Origin: Escherichia phage AidaStucki_Bas93
Sequence record: PQ850593.1
DNA: 64,000 nucleotides
Strand: one strand, 5' to 3'
Under the pieces are notes generated by a model, which was not told the origin of the DNA, ran no database searches, and was given only the letters and a program-made list of their open reading frames with translations. A program made the translations under genes and the position numbers. Shown here piece by piece: positions 6,858 to 53,208 of this stretch (the stretch's first letter is position 1; each line of letters opens with the position of its first letter).

Positions 6858-6866
6858 TAATGTATA
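6858..6866 (+). promoter_or_regulatory. Phage late promoter element TAATGTATA (candidate -10 for the phage-encoded sigma factor)
   Basis: Exact 9-mer TAATGTATA about 35 nt upstream of the ORF at 6900. The same 9-mer recurs upstream of other late genes (23943; 33392) and in reverse orientation at 33320. Confidence 0.5.
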
Positions 6867-33319: not shown

Positions 33320-33328
33320 TATACATTA
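33320..33328 (-). promoter_or_regulatory. TAATGTATA element in minus orientation, about 60 nt upstream of the SSB gene
   Basis: Reverse complement TATACATTA on the plus strand. It overlaps a plus-strand extended -10 TGTATAAT. Confidence 0.45.
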
Positions 33329-33391
33329 CGCTTATACCGATAAGAGTACTATATAATATAAGTATCTTTGGTAGTAGATATAACACACTAG

Positions 33392-33400
33392 TAATGTATA
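33392..33400 (+). promoter_or_regulatory. TAATGTATA element (plus orientation) in the intergenic hub
   Basis: Exact 9-mer. There is no obvious plus-strand gene downstream. Confidence 0.35.
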
Positions 33401-34167
33401 TATTGTATAGCTGATAAAGTTATTGCAGGCTTGTACATTGGGCAATTCATAGAATCCCTTGCAAGTACCGAAGGGCAGGAGCCACCTGCGAGATAAAAAT
33501 AGAGAATTAAGGAATCCTTGATTTAGGTTGTAGGGACTCCTAGGGACTTTGATTCTCTATTTAAAAGAATAAATAATTACTATATCTAATACTAAACAGA
33601 CTGAAACAAAGATAAGAAACTTCTTATAAATACTCATTACTTATCATCTAAATAGTTAACTAATCTCTGATATAAAGAAGTTTAAATCAAGCATCCATCA
33701 CAAACATAGTCTCCACTAAGAGACTCTTGTAACAAACGATTTTGTTCCTCTGAATATAGAGAATTTACTAATTCTTTTAACTCTGAAAGAGTGATGAAAT
33801 CAATAGTATTTCCATTATCTAAAATAGAAGAGTTAAGTAAATATTCATTGTCTTTAATTTTATTAATCATTCTTCATTTCCTTTTACTTCAGCGTAGACT
33901 TTGATAATGCCCTTAAGAACTTCCTTAGAAGCAATAGCACTTTCTTCAGAGGTGTGAATAGTAGAAAACTCTTTCTTTCCAATCTTGTAAGTGTGAACCC
34001 AAATCATACTTATTCCTCGTATTCCCAATTTCTTTCATAATATCCAGAGTTATAATTTAGAGCGCATCTCTCAGCCTCCTCTATGTCATCAGTGTTTAGG
34101 ATATTTACCCACCCACCAACTTCATCAAAACCTTCTTCTACTTCATTAAACCATACGCTATACTTTT

Positions 34168-34560
34168 TCATCGAATCACCAAAGGCTCTTCAGAGTACAC
34201 AGGAGCGGCTATTTCTACAGGAGGTGCTGCCCTAAGGTCATTAAGTCTTACGCCCTTCAGCATTCCATCTAGGTGGTCCTTTTTGGGTATTCCAACAGGG
34301 AAGTCGTCAATCCAGATATCTACAAAGAAACCTAACTGGCGACATACGTCATCTTTCTGAACACCATTGCAAAAGATGATAGGAATCTGCAAACGCTCTG
34401 CATCAATCTTAATGTCGTGATTATCATACCCATTAGGCTCTGCAAAGCGGTAAGTTACAAAACGTACATCATAACCTTTGGCTTGCATTAATGCCACCAC
34501 AGATCGCCACAGCTCTTTATCTGAGGTGTAAGTATCATCGTAATCTAAACCAATATTCAT
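34168..34560 (-). CDS. HAD-superfamily phosphatase (candidate 5'(3')-deoxyribonucleotidase)
   Basis: Motif I DxDxT at the N-terminus (MNIGLDYDDTY). Confidence 0.45.
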   Translation of the reverse strand: MNIGLDYDDTYTSDKELWRSVVALMQAKGYDVRFVTYRFAEPNGYDNHDIKIDAERLQIPIIFCNGVQKDDVCRQLGFFVDIWIDDFPVGIPKKDHLDGMLKGVRLNDLRAAPPVEIAAPVYSEEPLVIR

Positions 34561-35160
34561 GTTGAATCCTTTTAGACAAGAAAAGCCGCCCTAAGGCAGC
34601 TTCTTATTTAACTATTCACTTTAGCTTCAAGTGTTTCATTTTCAATACTCAAGTCAATCACTACGCCAGTAAGCTCAACGACTGCTTGGCGAAGGGCGTC
34701 TTTACCCATAGAATGTACTTGAGATAAGAAGAAAGCTTTACCTTCTTCCGTGGATAGGGTTTCTTTTAATTCAGAAGCAGTCATTGATATTCCTTATTTT
34801 ACATTGTATAAATTCGCATGATTGTACCACCATCAGCTTCAATAGTAGAAACAACTTCATCTCGTTCTTCATCCGTGTACACTAGTACACTTTTAAACGA
34901 GCCAGTCACATCTGTGTACAAAATGTTGTACTTGGGAGGTGGTTTACGGTAAATACCTTCCATCATTCTTTCTCCTCTCGTTCTTTCCACAGTTCAGCAA
35001 GCTCTAGGTAGAACTCAGCTTCATCAGGACGTCCTTGTTCATTACAGATGGCGCTTTGACGATAACACCAATCCGATGGCATCTCTTCCACTTCAATCTC
35101 CTTGTTATGAACTAATCAATAAGACTAGTTCATTTGTATTTCAATCTTTCAGTTCTGAAT

Positions 35161-35656
35161 TTAGTGTGTATGCATCCAATTTAACCCAATCTGACAATCA
35201 GAAGCCAGAGGACATTCCATGTTCAAGTACTCACCAGCCTTCTTAACACAAAGCTCGGTGTACTCTTTGAGTTTCTGTACATCATTACGGTTCACTGAGA
35301 ACTGGCCCTCATCGTGCATATCAATTACCTTAGCACAACGAACTCCATCTTTCTCAATCCACTTGTTAAGGAACATCATAGCATATTTCATAACAACAGC
35401 ACCAGCACATTGCAGGAGTGTGTTAAGGGCTTTATGAACCATAACCTTACCAGTGGCATCCCGTCTCATTGTAATCTTACGACCATCAACGCCAATCAAA
35501 TACCCTTGAGCAGCTTTCTCTGTCATACGATCAATGAGGATTGCAATACATGGGTTCTCTGCCAAGAAGCGTGCTCGCATCACTGAACCTTCGTCAGCTC
35601 CACCACCTACGATTGAACCAAGTTTAGCATCACCAGCACCATAGTTAAACGCATCT
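35161..35656 (-). CDS. DNA polymerase (family A, T7-like), exon 2: motif B tail ...AFNYGAGDAKLG... and motif C VIDMHDEGQF
   Basis: Reads in frame upstream of the tool-called GTG start: GAGDAKLGSIVGGGADEGS matches the T7 region YGAGDEKIGQIVGAG. Confidence 0.7.
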
Positions 35657-36362
35657 CATATATTCGACAAGAGCCGCAACACTCTCGCCCGTTCTCTTAT
35701 GAACTGCTACATGTCGCCATGTAGGATAGACTATATCATCACCCTCTATCGAGGGGTTGGGCGCTTCCACCGGCATTAGCTTCCGGCGTACTCCTTTCGG
35801 ATAGTCGTTGCACCTTCAAGTATTCTATAGCTGTTTCTAATCGGCTAACATCATCTTTCAATAGCCCTAAAGCTCTGTTGCAGTTGTGACACAACAGACC
35901 GCGTATTACTCCGGATTCATGGCAATGATCAACCACAAGTTTAATTCTGTGATGTGTTGCCATTACAAACCCTTCGCCCTTACAGATAGCACACTTCCCA
36001 TCCTGATCAGCGTACATCTTTTCGTAATCGCTGGCTGTGATTCCATAAATTCGTTTGAAGTAGGAATTTCTCCAGCCCCTATCTTTGCATTCATCAGAGC
36101 AATAATGTTCAGATGGTGCATTTGGTTGAAAATCTTTTGAGCAATTACGACAAGGTTTTGGATTGAACCGACCTTGAGGGTATTTACTTGCCTCAGCAGT
36201 CTGTTCTTCTTTAGTTTTAGTTACAGTTGTATATTCCATAAGCACCTCCATGTTGAGTTGCTATAGAATACTTGCTTGGCTCAGGATTGTCTACTAGAGA
36301 GTTTCCCTGAGTTCACCCAATTTAATCGACGAGATTACTCTCGAAGTATCCATTTACGTCAG
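35657..36362 (-). mobile_element. Putative group I intron (706 nt) interrupting the DNA polymerase gene and carrying an HNH homing endonuclease ORF
   Basis: Exon 1 stops right after ...RDNAKTFI, in the middle of motif B. A P1-like pairing is possible: the exon end UUUAU pairs with intron GUAAA 6 nt into the intron, with a U-G at the splice site. The intron ends in G, and joining restores KTFI-DAFNYGAGD in frame. Confidence 0.55.
35739..36251 (-). CDS. HNH homing endonuclease encoded inside the polymerase intron
   Basis: Cys-rich N-terminus plus DHCHESGVIRGLLCHNCNRALG HNH motif. Own RBS GGAGGTG. Confidence 0.75.
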   Translation of the reverse strand: MEVLMEYTTVTKTKEEQTAEASKYPQGRFNPKPCRNCSKDFQPNAPSEHYCSDECKDRGWRNSYFKRIYGITASDYEKMYADQDGKCAICKGEGFVMATHHRIKLVVDHCHESGVIRGLLCHNCNRALGLLKDDVSRLETAIEYLKVQRLSERSTPEANAGGSAQPLDRG

Positions 36363-37711
36363 ATAAACGTTTTAGCGTTGTCACGAGTAGGAAGACCAGC
36401 AAGTTTCTGGTTGTGGGAGTGGATATCACCTTCAAGAAGGATATCACGATACATAATAGCAGAAGCTAAACCACGTTCTGCCAGAGCTTTCTTAGCTGGA
36501 TTATTCTCTTCGATTGCTTCAGCAAGCATATCCCTACACTCTTTAATGAGGTAGTGAGCGAGCATACGAAGTTCAAGTCCAGAACCATCATACCCTAAGA
36601 ATACTTCTTTACCAGCGGGTATGTAATATTTGTAAGCACCTACAGGCTTATCTTTCTTCCCCGGCTTACCTTTCTCGTAAATTACGTTAGTACCTTTTCG
36701 TATATAACAACCATCAGGAACAACGTTAGTAATAACGAAAGGACGAGAGTGATCACTGTCTGAATTATAGTCAGACTCAAACAAACTGCGACACTCATGA
36801 CCAAACAAACCACGAGAGGGAATATTAACCACGATACGATGTTTGAATCGAAAAGTTGGCGTAGCGCAGCTGTTAGCTTCTGCCGAAAGTTTACCATCTT
36901 CGCGTTCCTTTGCTATGAGTCCACTGATAAGACCTAGCCTGTGAGCCGCTACAACGCGCCTCTTAAGCAAACTTCCAACACTCCCTAGCTCGCCCCCTAA
37001 CCCTTCTTCAAGAGTCTCCTCGAGGTTTGTAGGAGCTGTAGGCCACTTGTTTGAGGTAGCTAGTGCTATCTTAATCTCATCAAACGTGATAGGTCTACGT
37101 CGGTTAGGGTTTAAACCTAAACCAAACACATAAGCCTTCATATAGTTCTTAGTCTTAAACCTAAAATGCTTCTCTAAGAACCTCCTAATATCTGCGTCAA
37201 CCATCTCGGCTGTCTGCTTCTGTTTAGCATTACCTCGCATCCAAGCTGAATACCACGCTTGGTATGTTCCATACTTTCGTATATCTTTCTTGATTTCAAA
37301 AGTATTCCAAGGTTTCTTTGATACGTTAAACTCTGGAGGAAGAAAACCCTCATCCATAAGGGCTTCTTTAACTCGTGCATCTTTCGATGGGTCAAAGTCC
37401 ACGTATTCAACACAGGTGAATGCTCCACCAATGTCTTCTCTCTTAAGGCCAACTCTATCACAATAGGCTTGAGGCCACTTCTGTAAAGCTCCAGACTTCT
37501 TAAATGGCTTCATATAAGTAGAGCCATCTAATCTCATCTTAGGTAAGAGAGGGATCAGTTCTTTGTCGATATTAACAATAATCTCTTTAAGGAGGTGAAC
37601 ATACCACCGAGCATTTCTTCGGTTGAAACTCACTCCGTGCTTCGCTTGCTTAGAGATTATATCAGCGACAGTCATCTCTGTCAAAAATGGGAGAGCGTCC
37701 GGGTTGCTCAC
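36363..37711 (-). CDS. DNA polymerase (family A), exon 1: polymerase palm and fingers with motif A and the start of motif B. It has no 3'-5' exonuclease domain.
   Basis: Motif A GYDGSGLELRMLAHY. Motif B start LPTRDNAKTFI, followed immediately by a stop. Confidence 0.8.
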
Positions 37712-42475: not shown

Positions 42476-43079
42476 TTGGGTTTTCTCCATCAAGTTCAAC
42501 TGAGTTAGCAACGTTACGTGCAATATTGTCCATTACCTGCTGGGTAATTACGATGCAGTTCTGTGGGTCTACTGACTTAGAACGCCCCATTTCTGGGTCA
42601 TACACCTTAACACGCTTAGCAGTTGAACCTGTAACCTGAAGAACCTTCAACAGATATCCCTGATTACCGATAGACCAAGCAACAACATCACGATTCTTGA
42701 TAAAGCGACCAAGCATATCACGATGATAAAACTGTTGCATCACCTTGGATTTTGTAATCTCTTCAGTGGGCGGGGCCACTTTACTCAAATCTAACATAAC
42801 TCTCTCCTGTAAAATACAAACTCTTATTGTACTCTATATACATTTGAGAGTTACCATATCTACTACCAATCAGTAGTGAACTTTTCCGCTAATATAAACA
42901 CGACCAGAGGAATACTCTTTGGCCTTATGGATACTGATACTCTTAGTTAAATCTGTATTGAACATAGACTTTTTAAAATCTCGAGCCTGTTGACGAGTAG
43001 GAAGTGCAGTCATGGTCATACCACCTGATGCCCACTTAATCTTTGCTAACCAAAACTGTCTCATAATGATTGGCCTCAT

Positions 43080-49994: not shown

Positions 49995-52025
49995 TTAACC
50001 TCTATTCAATGAACATTTAGGAGAATTACAATAAACTTGATTCATAGAACCAAGCGTACAACTTTCAGCATCGCGCCACGGAATCTGCTTAAAACACCCT
50101 GAGCAGTAGCCGAGGGTTGACCACATTGCTTTGGTGAAGTCAGTGCTTCGATTTCCGTCGAAGCTGACAACAGTTTTGCGGAGAGCTGTTCGTGATTCAG
50201 GAAACACACCTGCTTTCTCAGCAGGTTCCTCCTTTTTTGGCTTAGTTGAGATTGCAAAAATACTGTTGCTACGTTTCTCAACATAAGCATCAACAACATC
50301 CTCCAGAGTAATGCCTGTCTGTTTCGCTGAGGAAGGTAATACAGTCATACGACCAATCATATCTTCAGTTACACGTAAAGCAAATTCAGGACGACGGGCG
50401 TTTGTTGTATCTGTTGCTTTAATCCAGACATAACCATCTTTGATCGTAGCATTAGATACTTTCTTCTTTATATCTACAGCGCAGACTTTACAGATGTCTT
50501 CACCACGAAGACGACTGAGTTCATCATCAAACTCGTTCTCTGTTTTAACTTCACCACAGATTTCACAAACACCAATAGGAGTTTCCTCCTCTTCTTCATC
50601 TTTAGGCTTAGTCAAACCTTCCAGACATTCAGGGTGCCAGTAGCATTGATATGCGAAGACTGCTTTAGGTGCATCCTTCCAATCAATGTGTTTATCACAA
50701 CCGCCACAATCACCATGAGAATGTGCTTCCCAGAATTTACGAGTGATAGTAACGCCATTCTTGTTGACGAAACTATCATTCATATCAAAAGGGATATCAT
50801 CATCAAAGTCAGCAGTAGTTGACTCAGGCTCCTTTTTCTCCAGAGATGGGTCAACAAAACGACCTGCTGTGATCACTAAACGAACCATAGCATTAACTTC
50901 GGAGATACAGGATACTGTCCCACGGTAAACAATTTTAGGGTCTTTCAGGGCATCCTGATAAGCCTTAATGTCTACGTTATGAACATCACCTTCGATATAC
51001 TCTTGAGATTTCTCATCGTAGATATAACCAATCATCTTACCACGAGAAGGAACAGCACCAGCAGTTGCATAAGGGACAAACTCATGTGGTGTGATCTCCA
51101 CAGTCATGTCGCGGCGAATGTCAATGTTTCGATCGCTTGCGATTTTGTTTTGACTTACCACTGCGTTTCTTCGACGAACGTCTGCCGCTGTCACTCCCGG
51201 CTTCGTGTCGTAAGGATTGCTTGTACTGCTTTTTGAGGAACTTTGATAGTTGCTTTGGCTGTAGTTGTTCGAGTAGTAATTGCCCCAACGATTGATTACC
51301 GTAAAAACCGGAAGCTCGTGGGCGACCTCTTCAACTAGAGTCATGCTGTTGTTTGACACATCAAAGATGTATTCTGTACCAACTTTACATTCAAAGTGCT
51401 CATCAATGCGATTCTTGTGAGACCTAGAACGCTTCAGAATCCACATCAACATATCTTCTTCAGAAGCACCAAACCAATCTCTGTTACAACGTGCAAGATG
51501 GAAAGGACGCTCTTCATTACGGATGATATGAAGACGATTATCAGAAGCATCGTGCCAGATTAAGGTGAAAGCACCATCCAGCTTTTGAATAGTCTCTGCT
51601 GCACCAATAGTGTTAATAGAGTGGCAGATGTTTTCACTGTCTACCTCGAAGTTTTTACTGTCAGGTAACAGGTCTTGGTTCATCAAGGTTCCGTTATGAA
51701 CCAGAGTGATGTTACCGTGTTGGAAAGGATGGGCGTTCTTGGCGTTAACTGCACCTTTCGTTGCATGACGGCTGTGACCAACAATCCATGAAGGTGCTAC
51801 AGTGTAAGCTGTTTCACCAGTGGTGTGCTTCTTGTACTCATCTTTAAGGATGAATGCGAAAGAAGGAAGTGCCTCTTTATAAGTGAAGACCTCTTTAGTG
51901 CTTTTACGCTGACCAAAGATACCAGAGGAGTGCTGTCCTCGGAATACTCCAGCATAAAAGAGTTGGTTAAATATATCTAAATCAGTGCTTGACAGATTAC
52001 CGCCAGCTAATACGATGCCACAAAT
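49995..52025 (-). CDS. Class-II (Ntn) glutamine amidotransferase, about 676 aa, with a Cys-rich C-terminal extension. The start is non-canonical.
   Basis: Catalytic N-terminal segment CGIVLAGGNL ... HSRHATKGAVNAKNAHPF ... HNGTL. Only AAA-ATT separates an in-frame TAG from the Cys codon. SD AGGTGGA lies 7 nt upstream of the ATT. Confidence 0.65.
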   Translation of the reverse strand: MCGIVLAGGNLSSTDLDIFNQLFYAGVFRGQHSSGIFGQRKSTKEVFTYKEALPSFAFILKDEYKKHTTGETAYTVAPSWIVGHSRHATKGAVNAKNAHPFQHGNITLVHNGTLMNQDLLPDSKNFEVDSENICHSINTIGAAETIQKLDGAFTLIWHDASDNRLHIIRNEERPFHLARCNRDWFGASEEDMLMWILKRSRSHKNRIDEHFECKVGTEYIFDVSNNSMTLVEEVAHELPVFTVINRWGNYYSNNYSQSNYQSSSKSSTSNPYDTKPGVTAADVRRRNAVVSQNKIASDRNIDIRRDMTVEITPHEFVPYATAGAVPSRGKMIGYIYDEKSQEYIEGDVHNVDIKAYQDALKDPKIVYRGTVSCISEVNAMVRLVITAGRFVDPSLEKKEPESTTADFDDDIPFDMNDSFVNKNGVTITRKFWEAHSHGDCGGCDKHIDWKDAPKAVFAYQCYWHPECLEGLTKPKDEEEEETPIGVCEICGEVKTENEFDDELSRLRGEDICKVCAVDIKKKVSNATIKDGYVWIKATDTTNARRPEFALRVTEDMIGRMTVLPSSAKQTGITLEDVVDAYVEKRSNSIFAISTKPKKEEPAEKAGVFPESRTALRKTVVSFDGNRSTDFTKAMWSTLGYCSGCFKQIPWRDAESCTLGSMNQVYCNSPKCSLNRG

Positions 52026-52104
52026 TTTCTAATCCACCTGAAGGGTAAACCCTTTCATCTAATTAACCTTTAAATTATGCCCCTTCGTCAGAGGCACCCA
52101 TTGA

Positions 52105-53208
52105 TTACAGCGCTTGCTCTAACTGATTTTCCAGATGATCTGGAATATATCCTGTGATGTTGTTATCACTGTGTCCTGACTCACGTAGCAAGTCAAAAAT
52201 AGCACGGATACGCTGTTCTGATGCAGATCGTACAGTAGATAGGTCAGTTGTACGAAGCATAACCAGAATTTCTTGGTACAAGTTGTTAGCGTTCCCTCGA
52301 ATATACCCAAGGAACCCATAGAAGTCTGGAATAAGACGTAAGTCAACAAGGACTTCTCCGTTGGAGTCGGTTCGACGTAAACGAATACGACCAGACTGCT
52401 CTACTTCATGAGAACGACAATACAAAACATCACGGGCCATACAATACCCTGAATGCAAATCCGATTCGTCCAGATTGTAATCCAGAGGAAGATAAGGAAG
52501 CATTGGGGCAAATCGTACAGTATTTAAATGCTCAATAAACTGGTCATTGCTCATCTCTGCGTTATCTAAAGCCAGCTTCTTCAACATTAAGAAGCGGTTA
52601 ACCAGATTGAGAAGTTGACCACGTTTCCACTTAGGCTCGCTGATACGAAACTCAATTGAGCCGTATTGGGCAAGTGGCAGAAGGTTCAGAGATGTATACT
52701 TATCCCATGAACGAACCAGACGGTTGAAGAACTCTTCACCGTCGTAGTTAAATGCGTCAGAGGCGTTCATTACCTGTGCTTGTACCACTGCGAAAGCAGG
52801 GCAGAAGTTGCTACGGTAACGATGATAGCCTGAACACTTGAACAACATTTTTTCATAGAAGGTCCAAGCGAGGATGGTTTTCTTGAGGATATTACTATCA
52901 GCATCCCTCATATCCATATGAACGTGAGTAGAGCAACGCCAAGTCCCCTCGGCGTGCGATTCAGCTACTGCTTCACTCAGGTTGTTGATAGCGTCTAACA
53001 ACTCCTGTCCATTGTAAGGTCGTGAACATACCATTTCACAACCATTACGCAGGGAACCATCCTCTGTACAATCCCACATATCTGCTTCAATATGGTCGGA
53101 ACCTTCGAGTTCTAGTTCGATACCGATACCGCACTGAAGTGCAATTGAACTATGCGCCTCAGTTAAACGACCTTCTCGGTATCCAAAAGTTTGCGCTACA
53201 GTTGTCAT
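52105..53208 (-). CDS. Amidoligase (GCS2 / glutamine-synthetase-like fold)
   Basis: GIGIELELEG and CSTHVHMDM motifs. Confidence 0.55.
   Translation of the reverse strand: MTTVAQTFGYREGRLTEAHSSIALQCGIGIELELEGSDHIEADMWDCTEDGSLRNGCEMVCSRPYNGQELLDAINNLSEAVAESHAEGTWRCSTHVHMDMRDADSNILKKTILAWTFYEKMLFKCSGYHRYRSNFCPAFAVVQAQVMNASDAFNYDGEEFFNRLVRSWDKYTSLNLLPLAQYGSIEFRISEPKWKRGQLLNLVNRFLMLKKLALDNAEMSNDQFIEHLNTVRFAPMLPYLPLDYNLDESDLHSGYCMARDVLYCRSHEVEQSGRIRLRRTDSNGEVLVDLRLIPDFYGFLGYIRGNANNLYQEILVMLRTTDLSTVRSASEQRIRAIFDLLRESGHSDNNITGYIPDHLENQLEQAL

Follow-up and report, generated by a model that had tools for sequence, protein, structure and literature searches.

The DNA analysed here is a stretch of 64,000 nucleotides (the window) of Escherichia phage AidaStucki_Bas93 (PQ850593.1), and we looked at the start of a minus-strand gene that its sequence assigns to the phi32_83 type of class-II glutamine amidotransferases. 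The 2.4 kb around this start are 99.7% identical to Escherichia phages ManiMatter_Bas94 (hereafter Bas94) and LAMP and 95–97% identical to many other Kuravirus (phiEco32-like) podophages, and the window is accordingly classified as that of a Kuravirus, a phiEco32-like coliphage. The full coding sequence (CDS), 676 codons plus stop, extends over 49995–52025 and opens with an ATT (52023–52025) followed directly by TGT (52020–52022), the codon of the catalytic Cys, which would be Cys1 of the mature enzyme. A Shine-Dalgarno sequence, AGGTGGA (52033–52039), ends 7 nt before the ATT, and the 7-nt spacer, TTAGAAA (52026–52032), holds an in-frame TAG (52031–52029). Further upstream lie a small hairpin, AAGGG-TTTA-CCCTT (52041–52054), which ends one base 5′ of the Shine-Dalgarno sequence, and a candidate 9-codon upstream open reading frame (uORF), MKGFTLQVD plus the TAG stop (52029–52058), whose ATG is at 52058–52056. 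Re-reading the minus strand gave ATG AAA GGG TTT ACC CTT CAG GTG GAT TAG AAA ATT TGT GGC ATC GTA, exactly as in the original prediction, an earlier note made from the sequence of the window alone. Its claim that no canonical start occurs before a TTG 112 codons past the Cys also held, since the first in-frame ATG, GTG or TTG is the TTG at 51686 (51684–51686); the amidotransferase frame is open from the TAG to the stop at 49995. The assembly error that it had wanted checked is excluded, as 96 independent phage records carry the same 55–58 nt with 100% identity, and the same leader sequence is also present in several metagenome assemblies.

The predicted protein matched Pfam GATase_6 with an E-value of 3e-15 and 56.7 bits (cut-off 27) and GATase_7 with 30 bits (cut-off 25). 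In the PHROG 4736 and 18128 profiles the Cys aligns at position 2, right after the Met, and in an alignment of 12 sequences from 12 lineages (A1) Cys-Gly at positions 2–3, R86, N111-G112 and D129 were all invariant. The R of GHSRHATKG, the N-G of HNG and the D of VDSE align with GlmS (1xff), where the corresponding motifs are AHTRWATHG, HNG and ETDTE. In a tblastn search against phage records, which found 327 matching records, almost every listed row had homology beginning precisely at the Cys. With its Pfam domain, a Cys after the initiator and the Arg, Asn-Gly and Asp motifs, the product is best described as a class-II, N-terminal nucleophile (Ntn), glutamine amidotransferase; these are the features that it shares with GlmS, PurF and AsnB. 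Unlike those enzymes it belongs to a phage-specific family (PHROG 4736), carries a long Cys-rich C-terminal half in place of a known synthase domain, and is encoded in an amidoligase/ATP-grasp cluster, the neighbouring minus-strand genes being those of an amidoligase, a COOH-NH2 ligase and a RimK-like ATP-grasp enzyme.

The layout of the protein is an N-terminal class-II GATase domain, a low-complexity linker at about 51269, which is rich in Ser, Asn and Gln, and the Cys-rich C-terminal half. The latter contains four CxxC motifs with zinc-ribbon-like spacing, at residues 439, 486, 511 and 640 (about 50708, 50567, 50492 and 50105 of the window, minus strand). As no known synthase domain matches this half, calling the protein 'glucosamine-6-phosphate synthase', as databases do, is unjustified, and the common label 'L-glutamine-D-fructose-6-phosphate aminotransferase' is likewise not supported beyond the GATase domain.

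Evidence on where translation of this gene starts came chiefly from comparison with its relatives. In all eight ATG-type lineages that we inspected directly, which include phage 7-11, Proteus phage Privateer, Cronobacter phage A24 and Aeromonas phage LAh_9, an ATG adjoins the Cys codon and has a Shine-Dalgarno sequence of its own. Because these orthologs (L009–L013 and L015–L017) carry ATG directly before the Cys codon, the Kuravirus ATT occupies the ancestral ATG slot. Between Kuravirus and Suseptimavirus, codons 1–112 gave a ratio of nonsynonymous to synonymous substitution rates (dN/dS) of 0.06–0.13 with a dS above 1, meaning that synonymous sites are saturated. Selection on these codons is thus strongly purifying and translation must begin at or before the Cys; it follows that the downstream TTG or ATG starts given in some records are wrong. 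The contrary explanation, that a canonical codon downstream (the TTG at 51686 or the codon-10 ATG of Suseptimavirus) is the start and the protein lacks the catalytic Cys, or that the N-terminal region is a decaying pseudogene, can point to several GenBank records annotated in this way and to the lack of any CDS over the leader in most records (only about ten of the kuravirus-group records listed have one). However, a start at the TTG would remove the catalytic Cys along with 112 conserved codons, and the purifying selection on this region, the invariance of the catalytic motifs (Cys included) across the family and the onset of homology exactly at the Cys make such a start extremely improbable.

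No canonical alternative was found upstream either: an in-frame ATG, GTG or TTG between the preceding stop and the ATT is missing from all but one of 18 distinct ATT-type sites, the exception being L114, with an in-frame ATG 7 codons upstream. The CDS is already annotated from the ATT in phiEco32 (RefSeq and GenBank), SU10, LAMP and the Bas phages, including Bas94, where it is the sole non-canonical start among 105 CDSs (89 ATG, 11 GTG, 4 TTG and 1 ATT). Taken together, these comparisons indicate that the amidotransferase is very probably translated from the AUU at 52025–52023. Of the two routes that the original prediction had left, initiation at the ATT with a Shine-Dalgarno sequence 7 nt upstream was thus the correct one, strongly supported by the comparative evidence and by the match to Escherichia coli infC described below; the ATT start itself already stood in the phiEco32 reference annotation, which that prediction had not known. 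We found no published discussion of it in the literature searched, among which the phiEco32 genome paper was not included.

Most of the related records listed place the start of this gene wrongly, among them all four GenBank records with a CDS over the leader that we opened directly. In Paul (L002) the TTG 112 codons in was chosen, in SU7 (L014) the ATG at codon 10 and in Aeromonas phage BUCT695 (L019) a downstream ATG, and all three lose the catalytic Cys; in Privateer (L015) the annotated start is a TTG that precedes the real ATG-Cys by 14 codons and adds a false extension of that length. Gene callers limited to ATG, GTG and TTG will go on miscalling such starts.

The second route of the original prediction was readthrough of the TAG, giving MKGFTLQVD-X-KI-Cys and a propeptide that removes itself as in Bacillus subtilis PurF. 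Ntn enzymes with propeptides exist, PurF is likewise an Ntn amidotransferase that needs an N-terminally exposed Cys, and the uORF does share its frame with the amidotransferase gene. The PurF propeptide, however, is a continuous stretch of 11 residues with a canonical start, whereas the phage frame is broken by the TAG, and a continuous conserved N-terminal extension was not found: none of the eight ATG-type orthologs has a propeptide, ATG and Cys being adjacent in each, 17 of the 18 ATT sites lack an upstream in-frame canonical start, and in the metagenomic and IMG/VR ATT lineages no open reading frame (ORF) comparable to the uORF precedes the start. The TAG is moreover a normal stop in this phage, ending 8 of the 105 annotated genes of the near-identical Bas94; the 64,000-nt window contains no tRNA gene; and both differences that BUCT695 shows inside the uORF alter the peptide. 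Readthrough was therefore unsupported and we consider it highly improbable.

ATT starts recur across the family. A protein-profile survey of IMG/VR returned 80 viral loci, in 79 of which the Cys codon could be located; it was preceded by ATG in 66, by ATT in 12 and by TTG in one. About 15% of the loci of one phage gene family thus use AUU, always in a GGAGGA-N7-AUU layout, so that the requirements of an AUU start can be compared across naturally occurring cases. With duplicates removed, 9 ATT and 58 ATG sites, all distinct, made up this unbiased sample. The Shine-Dalgarno sequence ended exactly 7 nt before the start in all nine ATT sites, as compared with 10 of the 58 ATG sites (range 2–10 nt), and its duplex was more stable (median of −9.3 versus −6.4 kcal/mol, p = 0.007). 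Most ATT sites also had a hairpin within a few bases 5′ of the Shine-Dalgarno sequence; the stem sequences were unrelated, and the median folding energy was −6.1 kcal/mol for ATT and −2.8 kcal/mol for ATG sites (p = 0.004).

The ATT lineages do not form a clade, and their proteins are only 23–41% identical to one another: Kuravirus is nearest to L009 and L010 (64–66% identity) and BUCT695 to A24 (67%), all three of the ATG type. Scanning metagenomes for GGATTAGAAAATTTGYGGNNT gave 24 loci, 17 of them amidotransferase genes. Together with the IMG/VR contig L027, the module loci represent at least 8 very divergent non-kuravirus lineages, all with (C)AGGAGGATTAGAAA-ATT-TGY-GG; because they were found by a pattern search, these loci show recurrence and not frequency. 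At least 10 divergent ATT lineages share the spacer TTAGAAA, and the other ATT lineages have GGAGGA in the register of the Kuravirus AGGTGGA. GGAGGA-UUAGAAA-AUU is the same, nucleotide for nucleotide, in lineages whose proteins have diverged this far, and the identity ends sharply on both sides of it. When an ATG version of the module, GGATTAGAAAATGTGYGG, was looked for in IMG/VR, there were only 3 matches, all by chance and none at an amidotransferase gene. This family-wide, stereotyped AUU initiation region is an addition of the present analysis.

Identity of this kind could also have been produced by homing endonucleases instead of selection on translation, if they had spread or homogenised the leader and the GGAGGATTAGAAAATT module, the start region being the homing site and the ATT possibly a cleavage-resistant variant of ATG. 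The scattered distribution of the ATT lineages, with Kuravirus and BUCT695 each nearest to ATG lineages, and the lack of an ATG module before any IMG/VR amidotransferase gene would fit this explanation. So would the upstream genes: HNH_3 endonuclease genes (Pfam) lie directly upstream of the ATT-type genes in L128, L038, L041 and L043, a putative endonuclease gene does so in L031, and remnants are found in L039 (all of these being metagenomic or viral contigs) and BUCT695 (L019, 2800–3000), whereas none was found upstream of 57 ATG-type sites. L031 and L038 share the same amidotransferase N-terminus and yet differ in what precedes it, L038 having an HNH-AP2 endonuclease there and L031 another, putative one; such unrelated upstream genes indicate repeated independent insertions at one site. 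These observations hint at a homing hot-spot in the start region and at a possible link between the ATT and endonuclease activity. On the other hand, identity halts abruptly at the edges of the module and of the 56-nt leader without co-conversion of the flanks, most ATT loci have no endonuclease gene, the exact-module loci were chosen by the pattern search, and in the unbiased sample alone the association (1 of 9 versus 0 of 57) is not significant. Homing would, moreover, account for the spread of the module and not for production of the protein, and altogether we regard it as a rather improbable origin of the identity.

The endonuclease ORFs of L031, L039 and L041 have as their stop the TAG of the module, in the ribosome-binding spacer (...QED*). 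An endonuclease of Escherichia phage vB_EcoP_YF01, a Kuravirus, was considered as a case of insertion on the start side, but its gene, of the HNH type (L134, 2609–3115), lies directly downstream of the amidotransferase gene; both ends of that gene are therefore endonuclease insertion sites. Elsewhere, two pieces make up the annotated DNA polymerase I CDS of Bas94, and the gap between them holds an endonuclease VII gene (about 34019–36569 of the window, inner gene about 34597–35097, minus strand), which suggests that the polymerase gene contains an intron-like or otherwise mobile insertion.

In Kuravirus the start region is part of a longer conserved element. The 56-nt leader from TTAAAGG to ATTTGTGG (52073–52018, minus strand) is the longest invariant run in a 5.5-kb alignment of Kuravirus and Suseptimavirus, in which only 55% of the columns are invariant and no other invariant run is longer than 24 nt. 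All 96 phage records have it without a single difference, despite the saturation of the synonymous sites that flank it; BUCT695 matches it at 91%, with the AAGGG/CCCTT stem kept and the loop changed to TTAA. Hairpin, Shine-Dalgarno sequence, spacer and AUU cover about 32 nt of this run. The upstream 19 nt, TTAAAGGTTAATTAGATGA, include the uORF ATG and a weak AAGG, and could be the initiation region of the uORF itself or a degenerate promoter. An invariant Kuravirus leader with extra elements that its start-site function leaves unexplained is the second addition made here.

The uORF raises the question of how ribosomes reach the AUU. They could do so mainly by termination-reinitiation, translation of the uORF melting the hairpin, ending at the UAG and restarting 3 nt further on with the help of the Shine-Dalgarno sequence. 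The uORF ATG, the weak AAGG 8 nt before it, the frame and the TAG are invariant in the 96 genomes, and BUCT695 keeps the ATG, the frame and the TAG; the upstream genes of L031, L039 and L041 (HNH endonuclease, putative in L031) stop at the same TAG in the same frame, and E. coli thrS stops at the equivalent position before the infC AUU. Against this, the uORF is limited to Kuravirus, Suseptimavirus and BUCT695, while most ATT lineages have neither a uORF nor a gene that ends there, the median gap to the upstream ORF being 30 nt at ATT-type sites. BUCT695 lacks the AAGG before the uORF ATG, and its two differences change the peptide (F4L and V8A). Finally, the ATGAAAGG string is out of frame in A24 and serves there as the Shine-Dalgarno sequence of the ATG start: A24 has TAGATGAAAGG in common with the Kuravirus leader, with the ATG out of frame and GAAAGGA as that Shine-Dalgarno sequence, so the uORF may be incidental. 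Reinitiation as the main route seems unlikely.

Other signals were looked for around the leader. The phiEco32 gp36-dependent promoter is a single element, tAATGTAtA, located 6–8 bp upstream of the transcription start (PMC8948821). At the leader, AAAGGTTAA has four mismatches to it and no match within one mismatch was found; L009, L010, Privateer, A24 and BUCT695 carry AATGTAA at the equivalent position, which resembles the gp36 consensus. Perfect copies of the element, TAATGTATA, occur in the window at 6858(+), 23943(+), 33320(−), 33392(+) and 38831(−), with a near-match at 42837(−); most of them stand shortly 5′ of a Shine-Dalgarno sequence and an ATG, and two face each other around 33320–33400. 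A scan for sigma-70 promoters and terminators gave nothing on the relevant strand near the leader, and an Rfam search of 51800–52300 gave nothing credible (best E-value 0.11, far under the gathering score). Copies of the leader were absent from 5,426 E. coli genomes, and in the phage collection, beyond the kuravirus group and two Aeromonas phage records, there was one weak chance match (E-value 0.1). The minimum-energy fold, in which GGUUUACC pairs with GGUGGAUU and would hide the Shine-Dalgarno sequence, had a z-score of only −1.7 and was dropped because both BUCT695 substitutions break it while sparing the AAGGG/CCCUU hairpin. Frameshifting (−1 or +1) across A-AAA-UUU-G, or a start at the overlapping UUG or GUG, was rejected because those frames stop within 8 codons and the upstream contexts differ among lineages.

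The gene directly upstream is that of an amidoligase of the phi32_84 type (52105–53208, minus strand), which ends 79 nt before the ATT. Its 3′ side is followed by a predicted terminator-like hairpin (52077–52097, minus strand), the stem of which shows compensatory changes between Kuravirus and Suseptimavirus (GTGCC../..GGCAC versus GCGC../..GCGC). Orthologous loci have G+C-rich hairpins followed by T runs, i.e. classical terminators, at the same place. Since this hairpin is conserved and the orthologous loci have terminators, the amidotransferase and the genes downstream of it may form a transcription unit of their own.

For initiation at the AUU, the sequence suggests the following scheme. 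The weak codon sits in a stereotyped region made of a short hairpin, a Shine-Dalgarno sequence, an A/U-rich spacer of exactly 7 nt and the AUU, with which the initiator tRNA would pair despite a mismatch at the third position. The N-terminal Met would then be cleaved by methionine aminopeptidase, a step that we propose because Cys is permitted as a second residue, and the catalytic Cys1 would be exposed just as in the AUG-started orthologs, giving the mature N-terminus CGIVLAGGNLSSTDLDIFNQLFYAGVFR with Cys1 leading. By analogy with infC, the output would be lower than from an AUG, and it would be sensitive to initiation factor 3 (IF3) and to conditions that penalise non-AUG starts. The low or regulated expression put forward in the original prediction is plausible in this light. 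It is tempered by the otherwise optimised AUU site and by the proteomics of SU10-infected cells, in which the protein was detected by 9 peptides among the early products (PMC4281155).

Several points weigh against this scheme or parts of it. The position of the N-terminus is deduced from comparison, and the SU10 dataset is uninformative on residues 1–112 because its table lists a mass of 63.8 kDa, which is that of the truncated TTG model (63.75 kDa) and not of the full-length protein (76.1 kDa). The Kuravirus Shine-Dalgarno sequence, whose duplex with the 3′ end of 16S rRNA has an energy of −5.9 kcal/mol, is the weakest of the ATT class. With 3 nt between the end of the uORF and the AUU, reinitiation may bring ribosomes to the start in place of direct 30S binding. 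The enrichment in hairpins may partly stem from the fact that ATT genes follow intergenic gaps, ATG genes usually abutting the upstream gene, and IF3 sensitivity is only an analogy.

The closest known system is infC, whose autoregulation by IF3 is experimentally established, IF3 discriminating against AUU. The infC start region reads TTG GAG GAA TAA GGT ATT, that is GGAGGA-AUAAGGU-AUU, and the phage module CAG GAG GAT TAG AAA ATT; both have an AUU start, a GGAGGA-type Shine-Dalgarno sequence ending exactly 7 nt upstream and an in-frame stop two codons before the AUU (the thrS TAA for infC, the TAG in the phages). The module matches infC at 11 of 16 positions, the likeness covering the Shine-Dalgarno-N7-AUU core and the stop in the spacer. 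By the same measure, duplex energies were −9.3 kcal/mol for infC, −10.3 for the phage module and −5.9 for Kuravirus, all at a spacing of 7 nt, and −7.2 for pcnB at 4 nt. Besides infC, pcnB is the only confirmed AUU start in E. coli, and AUU initiation reaches roughly 0.1–3% of that from AUG in reporter assays (bioRxiv 10.1101/063800). In pcnB too the AUU limits the level of an enzyme (bioRxiv 10.1101/063800), but there the Shine-Dalgarno sequence, GAGGTG, stands 4 nt from the AUU instead of 7, and the spacer has no stop codon. AUU mRNAs are reported to be poor competitors, especially at low temperature, under nutrient limitation and in the presence of guanosine tetraphosphate (ppGpp) (PMC5499595).

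One could go further and see in GGAGGA-UUAGAAA-AUU with its hairpin a dedicated, portable translational control cassette that copies the thrS-infC logic and ties synthesis of a potentially wasteful glutaminase to host IF3 or initiation status during infection. Such a cassette would perhaps have been spread, or shielded from cleavage, by HNH homing endonucleases inserting upstream, and would have grown in Kuravirus into the 56-nt invariant leader with its uORF. We offer this idea as speculation that is probably not right as a whole; an output of a phage enzyme that possibly follows IF3 activity is nevertheless a testable case. The differences from infC are as clear as the likeness: IF3 autoregulation was demonstrated for infC whereas the phage gene is likened to it by its architecture, the product of the phage gene is unconnected with translation, and in Kuravirus the Shine-Dalgarno sequence is weakened to GGTGGA and a hairpin, a uORF and an invariant 56-nt leader are added. 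The phage AUU start is a genuine if modest curiosity that belongs to the known infC-type AUU initiation: in its architecture the amidotransferase gene resembles infC, and control by IF3 would be the corresponding expectation.

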